Virus record (IMG/VR): IMGVR_UViG_3300045988_092438
Direction: 5' to 3' (one strand)
Origin: a virus
DNA: 64,000 nt
The position numbers and the translations under genes are program-made. The notes beneath the pieces were generated by a model that was given only the letters and a program-made list of their open reading frames with translations, made no database searches and was not told the origin of the DNA. This document shows, in pieces, positions 2,628 to 57,123 of the stretch (the stretch's first letter is position 1; the number at the start of each line of letters is the position of its first letter).

Positions 2628-4310
2628 TTATTTTCGTGTTGGTAAAGTTTCCACAATAGAGTCAATAACCTTTCTCACATCACTTGCACCTGTACCAATA
2701 GAACTATACACATTGATAACATCAATCACTCTTTCAGAAAAACCAGTGATAAGGTTCTTTCTGTAGTCATCAATATTAGCAATAGCAAAGTTATTACCTA
2801 AAAGGTTATCAATGTAAAGTTTCTTAATGACCTTGTTTTTAAAGAGTTTATTCAACTCAGCGTCAGTATCATAACTTCTACCACCCCAACTATAACCCCT
2901 TCTTAAAACAAAGGTCTTTCCACTTAAACTGTAGCAATCATTATCAGAAAGTACAATCAGATTATCATACTTAGTGTCCTGCTGATTAAGAGTGTAAAGT
3001 GCTACATCAAGAGAAGTTCCACCTCCAACATTATGTCTCTGAATCTCTTTCATAATGTCCATGACTGTAGACTTTCTGGAAATGTTAGTTACCTGTTCAC
3101 ACTTAGTAGCAAATACATACACATCTGCAATACCTTTCTTAAAGCAGATAGCACCTAACATACAAGCTACAATGTCAGCGGTCACATCAGAAGCACCAGA
3201 AACAGGATGTCTCATACTTCCACTTCTATCAATAAGGATAGCACTGTAACCCTCAATGTCCTGTAAGTTATCAATAGACAGGTCAAGTGCTTCTATTAAA
3301 GCGTCCATGACTCTTCTCTTTCCGGCAGAATTACTCAGATTGGAAACTTCCATATATGCACTGTAGAATCTGAATGGTAACAGTCTGGACTTCTCAACCT
3401 CTTTCTTATTGGTGAGTTTAGCCACAATACTATCAACTGCTTCTTTATCACTAAACATACCTGCTCTGTCAAGGGCTACAAGGTTTTTCACAATAGCCAT
3501 TACAGAAGAGGTGTCAATAGACTTCTTAACATCAGCCTTAGTAGACTTGCTGTTGCTGTTCTTAGATTTAGAAAGCTCACTCTGCACCTGCTTCACTTCT
3601 TCACTGCCACCAAACTCTACATTACCCTCGATAATCTGCTTAAAGAAGTCTCTGCTGACTCTGGACTTAGCCGGATTAGGTCTCAACAGCTTTACACAAT
3701 CTGCCATAGACACTTCTCTGTTTTCTCCAAGTGCTTTAGATAACTGATACTCATTAAAGGACTCCAACTTGTGCTGTAAAGCCTTTCTCAACTGCATTGG
3801 AAGTGGCTGATTTCTGTGACTGGATTTATTCTTACCACGACCTTTTGTAGTCACTTCAAAACCAAACACATTCATCTGCATTGCCATAATGTCAGTAATG
3901 TCTTTACCTCTTCTCACAATATAGTCACTGTAAGTCTGTAACTTATTCTTACCAGTCACTTCATCAAGAAAGTCCTCACCCTTAAATCTTGGGTCATTAA
4001 AACAAGCTGTGAGTACTGCCAGAGGGTACTGAATCATATTGTATTCTCTACCAATTCTGGCTACCTTGAGTGCATACTCAACGTCCTCGTCTGGGATTTC
4101 TGCAATCAATCTCTGGATTTCTTTAAAATCACTCTCAGCAGTCTTGCCCTTCTCATAGAAAGTCTTCTCACCAAAGAAGCTACCTAACACTTTACTAAAC
4201 AGTGTTTCAAGAGTGTTCAGCTTATGTACCACACTTCCCTCGTGGTTCACTGTCTTTCTAGTGTCTGGTTTCATGTTTACACTACCACGTTTGTTGTTCA
4301 TTGTTGCCAT
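2628..4310 (-). CDS. rsr: Ro60-related protein (TROVE domain + vWA/MIDAS)
   Basis: Collinear by-eye similarity to Ro60: RLLPFRFYSAY, ILIDRSGSM (MIDAS DxSxS), GGGTS, IVLSDND, ITGFSERVIDVI. GGAGGA RBS before ATG 4310. Confidence 0.8.
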   Translation of the reverse strand: MATMNNKRGSVNMKPDTRKTVNHEGSVVHKLNTLETLFSKVLGSFFGEKTFYEKGKTAESDFKEIQRLIAEIPDEDVEYALKVARIGREYNMIQYPLAVLTACFNDPRFKGEDFLDEVTGKNKLQTYSDYIVRRGKDITDIMAMQMNVFGFEVTTKGRGKNKSSHRNQPLPMQLRKALQHKLESFNEYQLSKALGENREVSMADCVKLLRPNPAKSRVSRDFFKQIIEGNVEFGGSEEVKQVQSELSKSKNSNSKSTKADVKKSIDTSSVMAIVKNLVALDRAGMFSDKEAVDSIVAKLTNKKEVEKSRLLPFRFYSAYMEVSNLSNSAGKRRVMDALIEALDLSIDNLQDIEGYSAILIDRSGSMRHPVSGASDVTADIVACMLGAICFKKGIADVYVFATKCEQVTNISRKSTVMDIMKEIQRHNVGGGTSLDVALYTLNQQDTKYDNLIVLSDNDCYSLSGKTFVLRRGYSWGGRSYDTDAELNKLFKNKVIKKLYIDNLLGNNFAIANIDDYRKNLITGFSERVIDVINVYSSIGTGASDVRKVIDSIVETLPTRK

Positions 4311-4343
4311 AATAAATTCCTCCATTCTTTCATGTGTTTATAT

Positions 4344-4728: not shown

Positions 4729-4854
4729 AAGTGGAGTAAAACGATAAAGTCTGTTTGTTTATCATAATGGGATTTGAACCCATATTCGTTCTGTGTTAGA
4801 AAACTGTCTTAACCATTTGACTATATGATGTAAACTTTATCTGCACAACCACTT
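4729..4854 (-). ncRNA. stalk module 3 (leader-trailer stalk enclosing the tRNA at 4759..4830)
   Basis: Outer helix AAGTGG/CCACTT, inner helix GATAAAGT/ACTTTATC, internal loop TTGTGCA x GTTTTACT. Confidence 0.6.
4759..4830 (-). tRNA. cloverleaf tRNA with anticodon loop CUAACAC (reads AAC, nominally Val); atypical
   Basis: Hand fold: acceptor CATCATA/TATGATA with a C1-A72 mismatch, D-arm GTC..GAC with a GG loop, anticodon stem GTTTT/AGAAC, T-arm ATGGG-TTCAAAT-CCCAT. Confidence 0.55.
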
Positions 4855-4868
4855 AATTTACTTTTCAT

Positions 4869-5002
4869 CAATAAGGAAGAAAAACGTGAAAGACTTCTTT
4901 TTCATATTGTTGGAATTGAACCAACTACACTTATTTCCCAAAAATAATGCTCTACCGATTGAGCTAAACATGATGTAATCTTTCACTACACATTCCTTAT
5001 TG
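4869..5002 (-). ncRNA. stalk module 4 (leader-trailer stalk enclosing tRNA-Pro)
   Basis: Outer helix CAATAAGGAA/TTCCTTATTG (10 bp perfect), inner helix GTGAAAGA/TCTTTCAC, internal loop TGTGTA x GTTTTTC. Confidence 0.65.
4901..4973 (-). tRNA. tRNA-Pro (UGG)
   Basis: Acceptor TCATGTT/AATATGA, D-arm GCTC-AATCGGTA-GAGC, anticodon arm TTATT-TTTGGGA-AATAA, T-arm GTTGG-TTCAATT-CCAAC. Confidence 0.8.
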
Positions 5003-5059: not shown

Positions 5060-5132
5060 CTGCCCTTACTGGATTTGAACCAGTGAAATGCAGGAGTCAA
5101 AGTCCTGTGCCTTACCACTTGGCGAAAGGGCA
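5060..5132 (-). tRNA. tRNA-Gln (UUG)
   Basis: TGCCCTT-TC-GCCAAGTGGTAAGGC-A-CAGGA-CTTTGAC-TCCTG..ACTGG-TTCAAAT-CCAGT-AAGGGCA-G. The U1-A72 pair and D-arm resemble bacterial tRNA-Gln. Confidence 0.8.
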
Positions 5133-5292
5133 TTAAAGCTGACATTTTCTCACGCATTTACCTTCCACCAGTGACACTTCTTAGTCATCACCAATGGTAC
5201 AGTCGAGTGGAGGGGCTGTCAGCTCACCTACTTTGGCTTATCTCTAACACATGAAAGTGAGAGTGTTTCTCCGGCACATTACCTCCGAAGAG

Positions 5293-5365
5293 TCGGAATG
5301 ACACGACTTGAACGTGCGACAAATAGATTAAAAGTCTACTGCTCTACCAACTGAGCTACATTCCG
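5293..5365 (-). tRNA. tRNA-Lys (UUU)
   Basis: CGGAATG-TA-GCTCAGTTGGTAGAGC-A-GTAGA-CTTTTAA-TCTAT-TTGTC-GCACG-TTCAAGT-CGTGT-CATTCCG-A. Confidence 0.85.
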
Positions 5366-5590: not shown

Positions 5591-5678
5591 CTGACTCAGA
5601 GGACTCGAACCTGTGCTACGCATATAGCGTACTAAAAGATTAGCAATCTCTCCTCTTCACCAACTTGAGTAACACTCC
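5591..5678 (-). tRNA. class II tRNA-Ser(GCU)-like element whose acceptor strands do not pair (pseudo-tRNA or tRNA-like RNA)
   Basis: D-arm CTC..GAG, anticodon arm AGAGA-TTGCTAA-TCTTT, long variable arm TACGC-TATAT-GCGTA, T-arm ACAGG-TTCGAGT-CCTCT with one C-C mismatch. The 5' strand GGAGTGT cannot pair with the 3' strand GAGTCAG. Confidence 0.4.
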
Positions 5679-5771
5679 ATTACAGACAGTGTGATTTTAA
5701 CACCCCTGCTCACTTATTTACACCAAAGGGCTTTGGCTGTAAACTGTCTGCGTCTCTTGAAGACATTTCAG

Positions 5772-5800: not shown

Positions 5801-6145
5801 CTACTCCAAAAGCTGATTATCGTCTAACACCTGTAAGATACAGTTATTCATCTTTCTCCACACCTTCATGTAAAAGATAGCAACCTTCTCTTCGGTGTCA
5901 TCATCTAAATCAAGTCCGGCTTCATTTGCAAAAGCATGGAACATTTCATGTGCCACTATCTCACAAGTCCTAACATCACGTTCTGTCTCACTACACCCAT
6001 TTTCTTTAGAGTGTAAGCAGTACAGCTCTTTGTCATACATTCGACACTCACCCATGTTACCTTCGGAAAGTCTCTTTAACTCTTTTCTCTTTCCAACTTG
6101 AACATCATAGTCAGTACCTAACACGTTTACAATAGTGTGTTTCAT
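5801..6145 (-). CDS. small putative zinc metallopeptidase (HExxH)
   Basis: HEMFH motif. GGAGG RBS before ATG 6145, with an ATGA overlap onto the upstream stop. Confidence 0.55.
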   Translation of the reverse strand: MKHTIVNVLGTDYDVQVGKRKELKRLSEGNMGECRMYDKELYCLHSKENGCSETERDVRTCEIVAHEMFHAFANEAGLDLDDDTEEKVAIFYMKVWRKMNNCILQVLDDNQLLE

Positions 6146-6357
6146 AACCTCACACCTCCAAGGAACATAAAGTAAAACAATCCTGCAATCATCACTGTCA
6201 ACACAATGAAGAGTGCTAAGTAGAACCATTTCAGCTTGTAATCCACAATCACGTTTGGTAACTGTGATTTCTTACTGTCATTTGCCATCATGTACACTAA
6301 ACAGGCAAACCAACATAACACTAAAAACACTAAAATGGCGGTTAAAATAAATCTCAT
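6142..6357 (-). CDS. small membrane protein (two TM helices)
   Basis: Hydrophobic 71-aa ORF with a GAGGAAG RBS. Confidence 0.55.
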   Translation of the reverse strand: MRFILTAILVFLVLCWFACLVYMMANDSKKSQLPNVIVDYKLKWFYLALFIVLTVMIAGLFYFMFLGGVRL

Positions 6358-6457
6358 GTACCTTCTTCCTCACTTTCTAAATTTCTTGTCTTTTCTTTGA
6401 CTGGCTCTATTATATCATACTCACTAAATCAGTCAAACGTCCTTCTCGGCTCTTCCT

Positions 6458-6539
6458 GCATTACGTCTTTAACAATAAATTATTTAATTATTTATATATT
6501 ATATATTATATTAAAGACTTATTGTTAATGATGTAATGC
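6458..6539. repeat. imperfect 21-nt inverted repeat flanking an extremely AT-rich core
   Basis: gcattacgtctttaacaataa (6458-6478) matches the rc of ttattgttaatgatgtaatgc (6519-6539) at 19/21 positions. The core is attatttaattatttatatattatatattatattaaagac. Confidence 0.7.
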
Positions 6540-6602
6540 CAGTTCCACTCATTCTTCGGACCATTCTTTAACACTGCTATATTCAGTGTTTAACACACAT
6601 TT

Positions 6603-7342
6603 ACCTCACATATACAGTGTTTTATGGACCACTTACCACACTCACAAAATACCTCACAGAATTTTAACACCTCACTTTCTCACCTTTCTCTCACAACACC
6701 TCACACATACAGGGGTATGGGGTTATTTTATACACATACCTTACCAAAATCTCGCCCAGTTCTAAGATACTAGGTGCAGTCTCGGCAGTCCACAGACCAT
6801 TTAAGGGTGGGGTGGACATATAAATTTTGGAAAATCAGTGTGTTTTCTCATAAAATCTTCACCAATTTTCAAACCATGTTGTTTTCTTCAATAATTTCTT
6901 GTGTTATGAATGAAATCATAAAATTTTTATTCAAAAGAATTTATATTTATACATTGTGTGTATAGTATTGTATATCACTTGTGTTATGTGTTGTGTATAC
7001 TATATGTAGTGTGTATCATGTGTATATAGTGTATGTATATACTATATGTAGTGTATGGGTGTACAATAAAATAAATGAATAATTATTACTTATTTACAGT
7101 GATTATACATATAATATACATAGAACTATTAAAAGACCACATATAGTATATTCAAATATATCACCAATTTTTATGCGGATATAGAGATATACTACCTACC
7201 ATATATTTCTTTATATATGTCTTTATTATAGCCTTCCACCCTCACCTCTTCTCACATCACAAATTTTTCTCACAGAATATTTTCATTTCAGTGACTTTCC
7301 AGAACCTCACTCACCTCTTTTAGTGTTTTTATATAACCTCAC
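6603..7342. repeat. dispersed ACCTCAC / TTCTCAC motif copies in a 1.1-kb non-coding region
   Basis: Exact ACCTCAC at 6603, 6651, 6669, 6698, 7304 and 7336, plus several CCCTCAC/TTCTCAC variants. Confidence 0.6.
6996..7054. repeat. 17-nt direct repeat tatactatatgtagtgt (x2) inside a TG/TA-rich low-complexity stretch
   Basis: Copies at 6996-7012 and 7038-7054. Confidence 0.7.
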
Positions 7343-7444
7343 AAAAAAATCACTAAATACTCTTTCGGGCTTTTCTCACTTACAACACACCAACACCTTT
7401 TAATCACCTTCTGGCACACCCTCGCTACACACTGGCACATAACC

Positions 7445-7476
7445 AAAAAAGAAGAGGAGCATATCTCAGCTCCTCT
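7445..7476 (-). terminator. rho-independent terminator
   Basis: AGAGGAGC/GCTCCTCT stem followed by TCTTTTTTGG on the minus strand, just after the stop at 7495. Confidence 0.7.
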
Positions 7477-7494
7477 CCTATCATGTACAAACTC

Positions 7495-7890
7495 TTAATA
7501 CTCTATGTGCCTTTCCTCACATTCATCACTTGCGTCCTGCAACTTCTCAATCACATCTGTGAACATTCCAATCGGGAAGTGAACTGTCTTACCTTTTAAA
7601 TATCCAGTGTAGGCTTCTGACTCTCTGTACATAGTCATAAAACAACAAGCAGGTGCTTCATCATCATCCCACCGCTTTACACTGACTTCAATGTAATCTT
7701 TCACAACCTTTGTTGGGTCTTTAAAAGAAGGATATTCACGCACCAGAAATCTCACTGGTGGAAACATAGGATTGTAACCGTCTGGTGGGAGTTTGTTAGG
7801 TTTCTTCTCCCTCTTTTTAGGTTCTTCTGGTGTCTGCTGTACTTCTACAGACTTCTTGAGTTCCTTCCTCTTGATTGGTTTCAGTTTCAT
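7495..7890 (-). CDS. hypothetical protein
   Basis: AGGAG RBS before ATG 7890 (MKLKPIKRKE...). Confidence 0.55.
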   Translation of the reverse strand: MKLKPIKRKELKKSVEVQQTPEEPKKREKKPNKLPPDGYNPMFPPVRFLVREYPSFKDPTKVVKDYIEVSVKRWDDDEAPACCFMTMYRESEAYTGYLKGKTVHFPIGMFTDVIEKLQDASDECEERHIEY

Positions 7891-53253: not shown

Positions 53254-53565
53254 TTAAGCATAGACAACCTCACTCATTTCCAGAATCATATCTTCCAGGG
53301 AAGTAGCTCTTTCATTAAGAGTAACCTGCCCTGTAGACAAAGCGGTTAAAAATTCGTCTTTCTCATACTCCTTCACAGTGTAAGAGTACAGAGGAACTAA
53401 TTCTTGACCTTCTGCTAACTGTCCTTTTTCAGCCACACGTTCACTCTCTGGAACTTCTTTAATGTTGGTATTCACATACACATGACTACCATCATATTCA
53501 ACTTCCTTCGGCTTTACTGTTGACTGAACATTTTCCATTGTTTTCATTGGCTTTCTTTCCTCCAT
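53254..53565 (-). CDS. hypothetical acidic protein (XkdW position)
   Basis: Overlaps the 3' end of the RT ORF. The likely start is ATG 53547, after GGAGG. Confidence 0.45.
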   Translation of the reverse strand: MEERKPMKTMENVQSTVKPKEVEYDGSHVYVNTNIKEVPESERVAEKGQLAEGQELVPLYSYTVKEYEKDEFLTALSTGQVTLNERATSLEDMILEMSEVVYA

Positions 53566-54679
53566 TCTTTAAATGATTTATATAATACTCCTCCACAGGT
53601 TTCTCTAAAGGTTTGAAGTACTTCTTATACAGTCTGTAACTGTTACAGTAAGATAGCCAACCCTTGTAGGAGTTAATACAACAGTAGTCGGAGTAAGACA
53701 TTTCTACACCACTCTCCACCTTCAAGCGAATTTTCGTCATCTTTGACTTCATTCTCTTTGAAGTAGAAGCTCTTAATAAAACAAAATCCGGGAATACTCT
53801 ATACCCGACAAAATCTACTCCTCTGTCTGCTACTGGGAACACTTGATAATTACTCTTGATAGTCAAGTGTCTCTCCACTCGCATATATTCTATAATCTCC
53901 CATTTCAACTTATATAAGTACTCTTTGGAGTGGTGGAGGATAACAATATCATCCATGTATCTGTAATAGTACTTAATACCTTTGACTTCTTTTATCCAGT
54001 GGTCGAAAGGTGATAAGTAAAAGTTTCCGCTAAACTGAGAAAGGTAGTTGCCTATTGGAATACCTGTATCGGAAGACATTGTGATGTTTAATTCTAAATA
54101 CCACAGAAGACCTTCATCTTTGAAAATTCTTCTGTAGTCATTCAAAAGGATTTCTCTGTCAATAGATGGATAGTATTTCTTAACGTCCATCTTTAAACAG
54201 TATTGAGTACCTTCAACATCATTTTGTATGTCATTTCTTACCCTTTCAAAAGCTAAATGAATACCTCTGTCTGGAATTGCGGAGTAGGTATCATATATGA
54301 ACTGCCTTAAAAGGATTGGAGCTATCACCTGTAGGACAGCCCACTGTATAACTCTTTCTGGGAAGTAACGTGACTTATAAATAACCCTTTCCTTCTCACG
54401 TTCTTTTCTTAGGAATTTCTCATAAGGTAGTGGAACATAAGTCCTTAACACTAACATATTCTGTATAGCTTTAAGGTGTTTCTCTGGGTCTTTATTGAAG
54501 TCACGAACTTCTTTGTACCAGTGTTTACCTTTACTAGCGTTTTTGTGTGCAAGTTTAAGATTTTCAATGGAACAAATCTTTTCCCATATAGTAAGCGTCT
54601 TATCTTCTTTCCCAGTTACAGGGTCTATAGGATATAAATGACGCTTCATAAACCATGTACTCCAAAGCCTAATCTTCAA
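53498..54679 (-). CDS. DGR-type reverse transcriptase
   Basis: IPIGNYLSQFSGNFYL and YYRYMDDIVIL motifs, with adjacent TR/VR. The likely true start is ATG 54649 (MKRHLYPID...). Confidence 0.9.
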   Translation of the reverse strand: MKIRLWSTWFMKRHLYPIDPVTGKEDKTLTIWEKICSIENLKLAHKNASKGKHWYKEVRDFNKDPEKHLKAIQNMLVLRTYVPLPYEKFLRKEREKERVIYKSRYFPERVIQWAVLQVIAPILLRQFIYDTYSAIPDRGIHLAFERVRNDIQNDVEGTQYCLKMDVKKYYPSIDREILLNDYRRIFKDEGLLWYLELNITMSSDTGIPIGNYLSQFSGNFYLSPFDHWIKEVKGIKYYYRYMDDIVILHHSKEYLYKLKWEIIEYMRVERHLTIKSNYQVFPVADRGVDFVGYRVFPDFVLLRASTSKRMKSKMTKIRLKVESGVEMSYSDYCCINSYKGWLSYCNSYRLYKKYFKPLEKPVEEYYINHLKNGGKKANENNGKCSVNSKAEGS

Positions 54680-54881
54680 ACGCTTTGTAAAGGTGTACCT
54701 TCTTTACTCAGCTACCAACAAGACTATCTGCTGTCAATGAAACACTATATGTTCTACCATCATACTTGTGTCATTTAACACTGATGACCTAACCCATGTT
54801 AGAGAGGTAGGGTAAAGAAGTTACACGGATTTTTAATTTATTTCAAAAGTAAACACTTCCGAAACTGAGTACAGTGCCGTG

Positions 54882-54987
54882 AAGTGGTCGCTGATATTAC
54901 AATTACGATTAGAAGCCACATTATTCAGATTCCAATAGAACAGCTCAGATTTCGTACCATTATTCCAATTCGTACCCAATAGGGTAA
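54882..54987 (-). repeat. DGR template repeat (TR)
   Basis: 106-nt repeat of 55241..55346. The sense strand is rich in AAT codons (..NWNNGTKSELFYWNLNNVASNRNCNISDH). Confidence 0.9.
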
Positions 54988-55200
54988 ATACTTGGAACAC
55001 TCATATTACTGAGCGTCCAAGTATTTCATGTGTACTGTTGGTGGCAAGAAATTCTGTAATTCTTGACCGCTTATAACCCAAATCATTACCCGATTTAGTG
55101 AAGTGGTGTTTCGTCACAATCACTGTTAATATTATAACCTTAATTCAAGCGTTTGTAAAGAAGATAGGCTTCTCCTTTCTTCAAAATTTTTTCTTTAGTT

Positions 55201-57123
55201 TTATGCTACTGCAATAGTGACTGTCTTTGATTTTCTGCACAAGCGGCCGCCGACAGTACAATCACGAACAGAAGCCACAAAATCCAGACCCCAACAGAAC
55301 AGCCCAGAATCCGTAACAACATCCCAATCCGCACCCAATAGGGCAATGTAGATGCTATTGTTACTCATATTGACATAGTAGTAATCACCTACAGGTCTGT
55401 TACTGTCTCCACCGACTTTAGAGGTCATATACATGAAATCACAATCTTCGGAGTAACCAAAGGCTTTAATATAACCCTCTTTTGTAGCACAGCTAAATCC
55501 AGTAGCAATATAGTCTGCGATTGTGTCAGAGAAGTCTTTACTTCCGTCCTGCCAGTATGCTTCATTACAGTCACTACTTGCGGAATGTTTTCTGAGGAAT
55601 CCATCAATGAATTTCCAGATGTTTCCGAAAGGATTCTTAACACCTCTGTAAACAGGAACATCAACATTGTAAGCAGTACCATTAGAGTGTGTATAATTAA
55701 CAGTAATCTTACCACTGCCATTTCCTAAAGTGGTGTTTGCCGGATTAGGTACAGAGTTGTTAATGTTATCTACCCAAGGAAGATTTGTAACACCACTACC
55801 GAAGACACTTACTGCTTGAATGTTAAATGTTGCATACTCTACCACAAATAACATCTGCTCTGCACTTGCAATAGTAACGTCTTCTTGAATCCAGTCTACA
55901 CCTCTGTTAGCACACAGTTTTCTAACTGCGTCTCTTGTAAGGTTCTTGTTACCAGTAGCACTTACTCCGGCAACAGTAGCTCCACTTGCAGGTTTAGCTC
56001 TGGCAATAGAACTGAACTTCTGTCCAGTGTAAGGACTTGCAGAGAGTGTGCCACTATCAGTGAGGTCATAAGTTCCACGGGTTTCAATACAACCATCATT
56101 CTCACCAATAAAGTAGTAATCAAGCTCTACATCACCTTTCTTAAATGCCGGGTGAAGTTTAAATCCGTCTCTTGCTGTAGGACTGATAAGGTCAATCCAC
56201 TTGGTCATGTGATAGCCCTTTACTTGATAGGTGTCATCAACCTGCTTCTCAAGTCTGACAGGGATTCTCTTGTAATAGAACTTAGGTTGCATAACCATAC
56301 ACTGTACTTTAGTTCCTACAGCTACGTCACCTACTGCTACAGTTAAAGCTCCTGTCTCTGTATAGGCTTCATCACCATAGAAAGCAACAACTTTTCCGTC
56401 ATCAGTTACATTGCATCTTCGTCTGTTACCATATACAGGAGACTTGTCATAATCTTCACCTGCACTCCAATACTGGTTATCACCCATTCTCTTAACACTG
56501 TTGTTGTCAAGGTCTACTTCTACACCCATAACACCTTCTCCAAGAGTTCCGAGCTGAACTTGAAGGTCAATAACTGTGTTAGAGAGGTTGCTAAAGCTAA
56601 TCTCCTTACACAGTCTTGTCATAACACCATCAGCAACTTTAGCAATAGCAAGATTATGTCTTGCCGAATCTGTTGTAGTTGCAAGAGTGTATTTAACCAC
56701 TTTACGTCTGGAAGTCTCTGTATCAGAACGATTGTCTTTAAACCAGTTAGTTACAGTAGTACTGTCCTGCTGATTTCCCTCTTCTTTCAGTGTTTCACTG
56801 TAAGTAGCTGTATCTTCCCACACTTGAAGGTAAACAGTTCCACTTGAAGCTGTAAGAGAGAGTCCAGTGCTTTCAACCATGTAACCACCAACTGCTAAAG
56901 CACAACCCTCTTTTACTTTTACTGCCCCACCTTCATACACAATCTTACTGAGGTCAGTGACACCATCACCAATGATGTTTTTGATAGCTCTTCTAAGCAT
57001 ACTCTTCTGAATTTCCTGCACTTCATTCATTTCTACTTCAAGAAGTGGTTTTTCAGCACCAAAGACAACACCGGAAACTCCTGCGTTGTCTCTATGATTT
57101 GTGTATTTATCAAAACTTGCCAT
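55201..57123 (-). CDS. tail fibre / receptor-binding protein, DGR target (C-terminal CLec-type variable region)
   Basis: 640 aa. The VR encodes ALLGADWDVVTDSGLFCWGLDFVASVRDCTVGGRLC, 13 codons before the stop. Confidence 0.85.
   Translation of the reverse strand: MASFDKYTNHRDNAGVSGVVFGAEKPLLEVEMNEVQEIQKSMLRRAIKNIIGDGVTDLSKIVYEGGAVKVKEGCALAVGGYMVESTGLSLTASSGTVYLQVWEDTATYSETLKEEGNQQDSTTVTNWFKDNRSDTETSRRKVVKYTLATTTDSARHNLAIAKVADGVMTRLCKEISFSNLSNTVIDLQVQLGTLGEGVMGVEVDLDNNSVKRMGDNQYWSAGEDYDKSPVYGNRRRCNVTDDGKVVAFYGDEAYTETGALTVAVGDVAVGTKVQCMVMQPKFYYKRIPVRLEKQVDDTYQVKGYHMTKWIDLISPTARDGFKLHPAFKKGDVELDYYFIGENDGCIETRGTYDLTDSGTLSASPYTGQKFSSIARAKPASGATVAGVSATGNKNLTRDAVRKLCANRGVDWIQEDVTIASAEQMLFVVEYATFNIQAVSVFGSGVTNLPWVDNINNSVPNPANTTLGNGSGKITVNYTHSNGTAYNVDVPVYRGVKNPFGNIWKFIDGFLRKHSASSDCNEAYWQDGSKDFSDTIADYIATGFSCATKEGYIKAFGYSEDCDFMYMTSKVGGDSNRPVGDYYYVNMSNNSIYIALLGADWDVVTDSGLFCWGLDFVASVRDCTVGGRLCRKSKTVTIAVA
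55241..55346 (-). repeat. DGR variable repeat (VR) inside the fibre gene
   Basis: Hand alignment at offset 359 gives 24 mismatches. 23 of these lie where the TR sense strand has A. Confidence 0.9.

Follow-up and report, generated by a model that had tools for sequence, protein, structure and literature searches.

The window analysed here is a 64,000-nucleotide (nt) stretch of viral DNA (IMG/VR record IMGVR_UViG_3300045988_092438) that carries, on its minus strand, four small RNA modules and a gene for an ortholog of the protein Ro60. To judge from its genes, the window is part of an ~85 kb tailed phage, a gut phage of a Gram-positive anaerobe; the genes in question are those for an endolysin with CW_7, LysM, CHAP and glucosaminidase domains, for an anaerobic ribonucleotide reductase, and for a family A polymerase, DnaB, primase and RecA. 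The modules stand in tandem and are read 5′ to 3′ on the minus strand as module 4 (5002–4869, a stalk with a tRNA-Pro(UGG)), module 3 (4854–4729, a stalk with a tRNA of anticodon AAC), module 2 (4714–4565, a stalk with a permuted complete tRNA of anticodon UGA) and module 1 (4546–4398, a stalk with a permuted complete tRNA of anticodon GCU). Spacers of 14–18 nt separate them, and they lie 73–680 nt upstream of the Ro60 gene. An earlier sequence-only reading had singled out positions 4729–5002, which coincide exactly with modules 3 and 4, as the place where tRNAs of ordinary topology are held in the same stalk that modules 1 and 2 use for a permuted core. What these two modules are is the subject of this text.

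The Ro60 ortholog is encoded by an open reading frame (ORF) of 565 codons (2628–4325, minus strand) with TROVE and Ro60 vWA domains (PF05731, 5.7e-15; PF25045, 9.7e-9). Among solved structures it matches Thermus phage phiLo Ro60 (9KOP, the best match, E 6.5e-16), Deinococcus Rsr (2NVO) and Xenopus Ro60 (1YVP). The ATG at 4310, which is preceded by a GGAGGAA ribosome-binding site and gives a product of 560 amino acids (aa; MATMNNKRG) with a start matching that of all relatives, is probably the true start, rather than the listed 4325. By Ro60 protein, the closest GenBank phages reach at most 26% identity across most of the protein, and a similarity search of GenBank phage DNA with the whole RNA region returned generic tRNA matches only and no relative.

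Every module is built on the same stalk plan, which consists of an outer helix, an asymmetric 7 × 8 internal loop (5′ UUGUGYA, 3′ GNUUUWCU), an inner helix of 8 base pairs (bp) and the junction UUACAUCAU. The motif TTACATCAT is found at 6 places in the window, where 1.28 would be expected (none of 100 shuffles attains this count), and four of its copies are evenly spaced at 4978, 4833, 4692 and 4523, one per module, each preceded by WTGTGYA and 8 bases. The composite TTGTGYR-N8-TTACATCAT gives 3 matches against 0.00 expected, module 4 having ATGTGTA instead. In module 4, the 5′ arm of the stalk (5002–4979) comprises the outer helix (5002–4993), the loop (A)UGUGUA (4993–4987) and the inner helix GUGAAAGA (4986–4979), and is followed by the junction UUACAUCAU (4978–4970), of which UUAC is discussed below and the last four bases are acceptor positions 1–4. 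The 3′ arm (4900–4869) comprises an unpaired linker AAAGAAG (4900–4894), the inner-helix strand UCUUUCAC (4893–4886), the conserved loop GUUUUUCU (4885–4878) and the outer helix (4877–4869), such that CAAUAAGGAA pairs with UUCCUUAUUG in the outer helix and GUGAAAGA with UCUUUCAC in the inner one. Module 3 is laid out in the same way, with a 5′ arm (4854–4831) of outer helix AAGUGG (4854–4849), loop UUGUGCA (4848–4842), inner helix GAUAAAGU (4841–4834) and UUA, a junction UUACAUCAU (4833–4825), and a 3′ arm (4758–4729) of linker ACAAACAG (4758–4751), inner helix ACUUUAUC (4750–4743), loop GUUUUACU (4742–4735) and outer helix CCACUU (4734–4729). The inner helices of the two remaining modules pair CAUUUAGC with GCUAAAUG and GUUAUUGU with ACAAUAAU; thus, the four inner-helix sequences are unlike one another, and each is perfectly complementary to its own partner.

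At minimum energy, module 4 folds into the stalk and a full cloverleaf (−36.4 kcal/mol, z −4.66), and the stalk forms in the folds of all four modules. The leader/trailer duplex reaches −24.4 kcal/mol (z −4.5) in module 4 and −18.5 kcal/mol (z −2.6) in module 3. Across the family, wrapped tRNAs (those held in a stalk) have duplex energies of about −15 to −24 kcal/mol and z-scores of about −1.6 to −4.5, whereas most unwrapped tRNAs have a z-score near 0. The tRNA-Lys at 5292–5365 (duplex z −2.5) was considered as a candidate with a wrap of its own and was rejected, as its fold is without a leader–trailer stalk (z −0.13). G·U pairs are found in the stalks on this strand only, and the structure therefore belongs to the RNA transcribed from the minus strand.

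To follow the stalk through relatives, we gathered loci from IMG/VR and from ENA/Logan assemblies by Ro60 protein and DNA motif, with Ro60 identities from 97% down to 60%; the initial IMG/VR pattern scan yielded mostly single chance matches, which were filtered by the presence of a complementary 8-bp helix downstream. In the 24 distinct stalks obtained from relatives, 95.1% of the cells form standard pairs, compared to 62% in shuffles and 46–56% with slid partners, and compensatory changes on both sides are found at 15 of the 16 stalk pairs (covariation score 0.825 vs 0.225). A lack of conserved flanking complementarity in relatives, which the sequence-only reading had named among the things that would tell against it, is therefore not what we observe. 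Among the same relatives, there is little or no variation in the stalk loop bases and in UUACAUCAU, and UUAC after the inner helix is nearly invariant, with AUAC, CUAC and GUAC as its variants. That the loops and UUACAUCAU stay invariant while the helices covary points to sequence-specific recognition.

This layout can be compared with that of the YrlA RNAs, which are defined by a position near Ro60 on the same strand, a stem formed by pairing of the RNA ends, a GNCGAA motif on the 5′ side and a YUAY sequence after the stem (Chen et al. 2014, PMC4201824; Wang et al. 2018, bioRxiv 10.1101/312249). The modules (5002–4398) lie on the same strand as the Ro60 gene (start 4325 or 4310) and within the ~4 kb that has been used for YrlA (PMC4201824), the stalk supplies the long end-to-end stem with an internal loop, and UUAC stands directly past the stem as the YUAY counterpart. 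The YrlA of Rhizobium phage RHph_Y65 has an outer helix, a 7-nt 5′ loop UUGCGAA, an 8-bp inner helix, UUACUUCGA and then the tRNA-like domain, such that UUGUGYA of the window corresponds in position to UUGCGAA, and UUAC-AUCAU to UUAC-UUCGA; the YrlA of Bacillus phage G shares the same general layout. Because the plan is that of these phage YrlAs, with matching loop and junction positions, the stalk of the window appears to be a diverged YrlA-type stalk.

The arrangement is not confined to the relatives of this phage. A search of other Ro60-encoding phages for stalk-flanked tRNAs, as the sequence-only reading had proposed, was positive in two distant lineages, represented by csAssE-Sib (OR575929), whose Ro60 is 24.6% identical to that of the window, and by the crAss-like phage cr111_1 (MT774387), for which the value is ~24%. 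In csAssE-Sib, an annotated tRNA-Tyr and tRNA-Lys follow a permuted YrlA-like RNA and lie directly upstream of the Ro60 gene, each wrapped in a stalk made of an outer helix, a UGGUGAK loop, an 8–9-bp helix, UUACUUCGAA and the 3′ loop NGCUUUUC; the acceptor stem of the “tRNA-Lys” is paired at 4–5 of its 7 positions (by eye). In cr111_1, an annotated tRNA-Gln is wrapped, with a UAGUGAC loop and a UUUCAUCGAA junction (duplex −23.7 kcal/mol, z −3.5), and a second stalk with almost no cargo lies nearby. An IMG/VR scan with the pattern TGGTGA-N9-TTACTTCGAA retrieved at least 120 csAssE-Sib-like contigs. Among the matches listed (120 contigs), there are 211 stalk sites, mostly two per contig and ~146 nt apart; ARAGORN places a tRNA after 164 of these 211 sites, with its 5′ end 5–6 nt into the junction and the anticodons Lys-UUU (96), Tyr-GUA (56), GGUA (4), Cys (3), Glu (2), Asn (2) and Thr (1), and a same-strand Ro60 gene comes next in 104 of the 120 contigs, at a median distance of 187 nt. 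At some sites of this lineage, the stalk is kept and the tRNA body is deleted. Across the lineages, further tRNAs of the clusters that hold wrapped ones are unwrapped. Stalk-wrapped tRNAs are not rare: public gut viromes contain them in abundance, and GenBank records label them as plain tRNAs.

These observations bear on the suggestion that the stems have nothing to do with Ro60 and are processing sites of an RNase III or other type, or stabilisers of a polycistronic tRNA transcript, in which case the adjacency of Ro60 would be meaningless synteny. Leader–trailer stems are a known device of rRNA and some tRNA precursors, and we infer binding by Ro60 for a stalk that lacks the canonical CGAA Ro60 motif. 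However, the longest unbroken helices here are of 8–10 bp with the 7 × 8 loop between them, which falls short of the roughly two turns of near-continuous duplex that RNase III requires, and such a function would leave both the invariance of the loops and UUACAUCAU amid covarying helices and a plan common to phage YrlA-type RNAs without a reason. In addition, the arrangement recurs beside Ro60 in three lineages at ~24% Ro60 identity, and the neighbouring cluster tRNAs do without it. We consider stems independent of Ro60 to be quite improbable.

Turning to the cargo, ARAGORN and Rfam agree on four tRNAs on the minus strand of the region: the unwrapped tRNA-Lys(UUU) (5292–5365) and tRNA-Gln(UUG) (5060–5132), the tRNA-Pro(UGG) of module 4 (4973–4901; Rfam 61.1 bits against a gathering score of 29), and the “Val”(AAC) tRNA of module 3 (4830–4759; 57.6 bits against the same gathering score). 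The tRNA-Pro begins at base 6 of the junction motif (T4973) and the AAC tRNA at base 4 (C4830); therefore, the motif supplies the first acceptor nucleotides, as the sequence-only reading had noticed. Both wrapped tRNAs hold U8, A14, G18, G19 and the T loop UUCAA. The tRNA-Pro has an acceptor stem paired at 7 of 7 positions (one G·U; U1–A72), G37 and discriminator A. Discriminator A is also present in the AAC tRNA, whose acceptor stem opens with a C1·A72 mismatch (Rfam alignment). None of the tRNAs in this cluster has an encoded CCA. Unpaired linkers of 3–5 nt on the 5′ side and 8–9 nt (discriminator counted) on the 3′ side flank the acceptor stem.

The two slots have fared differently among relatives. 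The tRNA-Pro is 95.9% identical to its copy in the relative L004, as compared to 81.9% for the Ro60 DNA and 98.6% for the free tRNA-Gln. The Pro slot retains UGG on two diverged tRNA bodies in relatives, and the wrapped tRNA-Pro is the only tRNA-Pro of its clade, clades with another anticodon in that slot having a free tRNA-Pro. Since it is canonical, conserved at 95.9%, faithful to UGG and the sole tRNA-Pro of its clade, it is plausible that this tRNA is also released as a working tRNA, to which we would give an even chance. The AAC-slot body carries UCC, AAC, GCA, UUU or an 8-nt loop in relatives, all on one body, with UCC appearing to be the ancestral anticodon. Its acceptor 5′ strand is set by the junction motif irrespective of the anticodon, and the C1·A72 mismatch is shared with wrapped tRNAs of cr111_1 and csAssE-Sib, so that three lineages show it. 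In bacteria, a C1·A72 mismatch is a hallmark of the initiator tRNA and disfavours binding to EF-Tu. The mismatch, the junction-fixed acceptor strand and the repeated anticodon change on one body make it more likely that the AAC-slot tRNA serves mainly as a tethered mimic than as a decoder, and its release as a decoder seems rather unlikely.

In modules 1 and 2, ARAGORN, Rfam and the folds bear out the permuted topology and its attachment at the variable position that the sequence-only reading had set against the acceptor-joined cloverleaves of modules 3 and 4. The order is T arm, closed 7-bp acceptor hairpin, D arm and anticodon arm, and the stalk exits at the variable region; when either module is re-joined in silico to normal order, ARAGORN calls a complete tRNA. 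The loop of the acceptor hairpin reads G-CCA in module 1, and the anticodon of this module varies among relatives between GCU, UUU (the commonest), GUU, ACG, UGA and AUU. Permuted-tRNA splicing was considered for these modules and rejected. There is no bulge-helix-bulge motif at the leader–trailer junction, the stalk being made of 8-bp helices around the 7 × 8 loop, and neither an RtcB-type ligase nor a splicing endonuclease domain was found in the ORFs scanned, among which small ORFs were only partly covered. Likewise, the larger ORFs scanned include no RNA ligase and no CCA-adding enzyme.

In relatives, the same stalk carries ordinary tRNAs of the types Pro-UGG, Gly-UCC, Cys-GCA, Asn-GUU, Asp-GUC (one base away from the GUU of a sister contig), Lys-UUU and Ile-GAU, as well as class I bodies with GCU or GUA anticodons, giving at least 10 anticodons in wrapped tRNAs (UGG, AAC, GCA, UCC, GUU, GUC, UUU, GCU, GUA and GAU). 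Bacterial SerRS and TyrRS are not expected to charge class I bodies with GCU or GUA, given that the identity of their tRNAs is of class II. The cargo of relatives takes three permutation topologies, the third of which (L137, 3105–3260) is opened between the D and anticodon arms and runs in the order anticodon arm, T arm, closed acceptor, D arm, and at one locus (L141, 190–310) the cargo in the stalk is a 57-nt, two-hairpin element and no tRNA. The most distant relative has a wrapped tRNA-Gly that lies 1.2 kb from the other modules, with five unwrapped tRNAs between them. Wrapped tRNAs with 8-nt anticodon loops are also seen, with CUUUCCAC in L136 (3160–3260) and a GGUA “anticodon” at at least 4 sites of the csAssE lineage (IMG/VR loci L153–L272); such loops have the shape of frameshift-suppressor tRNAs, or may be a sign of relaxed constraint. 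The stalk is independent of its cargo and portable: the proposal of a cargo-independent cassette, made from the window alone, holds across at least ten anticodons, an 8-nt loop, a third permutation, the 57-nt non-tRNA cargo and the emptied stalks of the csAssE lineage.

This variety is a difficulty for a reading in which the stalk recruits Ro60, possibly with a 3′ exonuclease, only to protect, fold or trim AU-rich tRNA precursors, such that free tRNAs are the sole products of modules 3 and 4. Much would be well explained in this way, including the 95.9% conservation of the clade's sole tRNA-Pro (on a par with the 98.6% of the free tRNA-Gln), the open linkers beside the acceptor stem and the lack of an encoded CCA, which is as expected in a host with RNase Z and a CCA-adding enzyme. 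There is also precedent, in that Rsr has been reported to aid exonucleases in 23S rRNA maturation, and RNase P processes the YrlA of M. smegmatis (PMC4201824). Nevertheless, the same stalk is found on closed-acceptor cargo (module 2) and non-tRNA cargo (L141) that cannot yield tRNAs, and several features of the tRNA cargo argue against decoding, namely the C1·A72 mismatch, the poorly paired acceptor stem of the csAssE “tRNA-Lys” (4–5 of 7), the Ser and Tyr anticodons on class I bodies and the 8-nt anticodon loops. Precursors alone are therefore, in our judgment, an unlikely account of modules 3 and 4.

A different function for tethered tRNA look-alikes would be that of decoys, held by Ro60, which bait or absorb host anticodon nucleases or other tRNA-targeting defences, with the displayed loop tracking the weapon of the host. 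In permuted and ordinary cargo alike, the anticodon triplets change fast while U33, R37 and the arm structure are kept. The commonest tethered loop, CUUUUAA, is that of tRNA-Lys(UUU); it is present in 96 of the 164 wrapped tRNAs of the csAssE lineage among the matches listed, as well as in module 1 of most relatives. Anticodon nucleases are known to attack tRNA-Lys(UUU). This support is purely circumstantial, and an unwrapped tRNA slot, recognisable by its shared acceptor stem and T arm, also switches its anticodon, being Lys(UUU) here (5292–5365) and Pro(UGG) in four relatives (L133, 2175–2250; L134, 2849–2924; L136, 2560–2634; L139, 2990–3063). Anticodon remoulding is therefore frequent in this phage family, and the idea that anticodon turnover is special to wrapped tRNAs was rejected. 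We regard decoys as improbable.

One could also suppose that tRNA genes were recombined by accident into Y RNA genes and are now decaying there as functionless relics, as the empty-stalk deletion derivatives of the csAssE lineage, a deletion-fused tRNA nearby in the window (5598–5680) and the odd loops of some cargoes might suggest. Relics would, however, hardly keep the cloverleaf, the elbow nucleotides and the stalk, the last with compensatory changes, down to a Ro60 identity of 60%; nor would the arrangement be expected to recur in independent lineages, or the tRNA-Pro to be under strong purifying selection. This explanation is very improbable.

Taking these considerations together, we propose that modules 3 and 4 belong to an array of four YrlA-class phage Y RNAs and are Ro60-bound units with an unpermuted tRNA domain, and we assign this reading a probability of about 0.6. 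By our estimate, the stalked, Ro60-bound RNA would be a functional species for all four modules. Each unit folds separately; its stalk would be the handle for the phage Ro60, and its far end displays a tRNA-shaped domain, which is a circularly permuted tRNA in modules 1 and 2 and, in modules 3 and 4, a cloverleaf whose acceptor stem rises from the junction. The invariant loop and junction bases are candidate Ro60 contacts, and Ro60 would thereby carry a tRNA-shaped module, as has been proposed for YrlA. The open linkers beside the acceptor stem might allow host RNase P, RNase Z and the CCA-adding enzyme to free the tRNA, and, with the RNase P site inside the invariant junction, Ro60 binding and cleavage may compete. 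Of all this, the structure with its covariation, the diversity of the cargo and the repeated association with Ro60 genes are observed, whereas the binding of Ro60, the processing and the role of the resulting particle are inferred.

A number of points weigh against this proposal. The Ro60 motif GNCGAA(N0–1)G or CGAA is absent from all stalks of the window's family, which have UUGUGYA in its place (in the csAssE and cr111 lineages, CGAA sits in the junction instead), and binding of the stalk by the phage Ro60 is a supposition on our part. Module 1 matches the Rfam YrlA model (RF02553) at 28.7 bits (E 0.0012) against a gathering score of 69, and modules 3 and 4 do not match it; we note that the YrlAs of Bacillus phage G and RHph_Y65 also remain below the threshold, at 34–37 bits. 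The permuted order of T arm, closed acceptor-like hairpin and D arm is found in modules 1 and 2 and not in modules 3 and 4. The conservation of tRNA-Pro is equally compatible with a plain tRNA precursor, and remoulding of the unwrapped slot means that anticodon turnover alone is no mark of a mimic. Finally, tRNAs near Ro60 are unwrapped in Bacillus phage G, RHph_Y65, Streptomyces phage Satis, a Desulfovibrio phage and crAss001, so that wrapping is no general property of Ro60 loci (its universality at such loci was considered and rejected), and within each lineage, the linkage to Ro60 is partly inherited synteny.

A bolder version of the proposal would make the stalk a tag that puts whole tRNAs under the control of Ro60, with phage Ro60 particles as tRNA-handling machines and bacterial Y RNAs derived from stalked tRNA precursors rather than from dimeric tRNA transcripts. 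We hold this to be doubtful. If it were true, Ro60 might keep stalked tRNAs as protected or gated precursors, or as bait for host defences that target tRNAs, and the unpermuted modules would be the ancestral or an intermediate form.

Several further features surround the modules. A promoter-like site (TTGACA-17-TATAGT with an extended −10 TG, 5058–5030, minus strand; 11 of 12 consensus matches) lies directly upstream of module 4, its −10 element is kept in the relatives L003 and L004, and it is likely to be the start of a transcript of all four modules. Between module 1 and the Ro60 gene, a terminator-like hairpin identified by eye (GACUUCACAAU / AUUGUGAGGUC followed by UUUUAUU, 4378–4344, minus strand) is kept in relatives and is not listed by the scan that gave the promoter-like site. 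The spacer between tRNA-Lys and tRNA-Gln (5133–5240, minus strand) is strongly structured (−35.7 kcal/mol, z −4.24) and kept in relatives, with compensatory changes from CCA/UGG to CUG/CAG in its inner hairpin; it contains UUGGUGAU, which is similar to the 5′ loop of csAssE-type stalks, and may be a further small RNA. The tRNA remnant at 5598–5680 (minus strand; no ARAGORN call, Rfam 24 bits) is a chimera in which the 5′ part of a class II tRNA-Ser(GCU) is joined at the T arm to the 3′ end of a tRNA-Asn, corresponding to a ~450-nt deletion between two homologous T arms relative to L002. Farther upstream, a ~1.1 kb non-coding region (6360–7500, minus strand) includes a long hairpin (~6455–6545) that holds a fifth minus-strand copy of TTACATCAT, without a stalk, as well as AT-rich tandem repeats of ~20–22 nt (6963–7054), and may be an origin or regulatory region.

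The window also contains a diversity-generating retroelement (53498–55346, minus strand), with a reverse transcriptase ORF (53498–54679) and a 106-nt template repeat (54882–54987) that matches a variable repeat (55241–55346) at the C-terminal end of a 640-aa tail-region protein (55201–57123); 23 of the 24 mismatches fall at template adenines. As a driver of the anticodon changes it was rejected, since its repeat pair targets the tail protein and the tRNA changes are not adenine-specific. In Bacteroides phage crAss001 (L146, MH675552), a 900-nt unannotated gap downstream of the TROVE gene (5811–6715) holds four copies of UUACUUCAA and a tRNA-like RNA (6084–6227, Rfam tRNA 46.6 bits) whose ~70-nt insert at the anticodon position includes this motif, which looks like another way of joining a stalk to a tRNA.

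The sequence-only reading had not recognised individually stalk-wrapped tRNAs beside a Ro60 gene as anything known, and this holds for one half of the arrangement: the stalk has the stem layout of YrlA and is no unknown cassette, and we did not find the unpermuted cargo described. In the Y RNA literature that we examined (in full text, and not exhaustively), only permuted tRNA mimics are described as Y RNA cargo, and in the papers on crAss-like phages that we examined, only the TROVE protein is mentioned. Thus, the YrlA-type Y RNA itself is known, and what is new is such an RNA carrying unpermuted tRNAs, or tRNAs opened at the variable arm. A Ro60-type stalk can accordingly be combined with a whole tRNA in its usual order, real anticodon loop included, and this arrangement is common in gut phages, being present in an abundant ~85-kb family that infects Gram-positive anaerobes, in csAssE-Sib-like phages and in one crAss-like phage. 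Some annotated phage “tRNA genes” are then embedded in Y RNAs and may not be decoders, which affects inferences of codon adaptation and host range. These loci also supply simple test substrates for the competition of Ro60 and RNase P at the junction, for tRNA release and charging, and for the role of the anticodon.

It remains to place the modules among known systems. With the YrlA RNAs of Salmonella Typhimurium, other bacteria and phages (RF02553), they share the same-strand position beside Ro60, the long stem with its internal loop, the YUAY sequence and an effector domain that folds as a tRNA, with T arm, D arm and acceptor-like stem. The YrlA mimic is, however, a circularly permuted tRNA with a closed acceptor stem and no anticodon loop, joined to the stalk via the anticodon stem (10.1101/312249), whereas in modules 3 and 4 the stalk leads through the acceptor stem into a full, unpermuted cloverleaf. 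Modules 1 and 2 differ from known YrlAs in keeping their anticodon arm and being opened at the variable region rather than at the anticodon loop, and the stalks of the window have UUGUGYA in the place of GNCGAA. The YrlA of M. smegmatis, with its 7-bp acceptor stem, undergoes cleavage by RNase P and addition of CCA in vivo in its Rsr-bound state (PMC4201824); a Y RNA can thus double as a substrate of tRNA-processing enzymes, and the two fates can coexist. Module 1 is similar in having an acceptor stem of 7 bp whose loop reads G-CCA; but as the M. smegmatis RNA is permuted, its tRNA-like part stays on the stalk after cleavage, whereas cleavage of modules 3 and 4 by RNase P and RNase Z would detach the whole tRNA. 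In Thermus phage phiLo, a phage-encoded Ro60 also has Y-like RNAs (Yrl1 and Yrl2) just upstream, although these are stem-bulge-stem RNAs with a CGAA motif, for which no tRNA or tRNA-like cargo is described (PMC12135203). Permuted tRNA genes of Cyanidioschyzon merolae resemble modules 1 and 2 in that the 3′ half precedes the 5′ half and leader pairs with trailer; their precursors, as far as a secondary account conveys (Soma 2007, as cited in 10.1101/312249), carry a bulge-helix-bulge, are cut by a splicing endonuclease and pass through circularisation, in contrast to the window, where the stalk is without a bulge-helix-bulge, the scan of ORFs gave no such enzymes, and the permutation does not extend to modules 3 and 4. 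Lastly, modules 3 and 4 resemble the tRNAs of ordinary phage clusters in scoring as normal tRNAs and in standing at the end of a cluster with Lys, Gln and a Ser/Asn remnant. The ordinary cluster tRNAs here differ from them in having no conserved leader–trailer stalk (z about 0), and in the wrapped tRNAs, a common, invariant junction fixes the 5′ strand of the acceptor stem.

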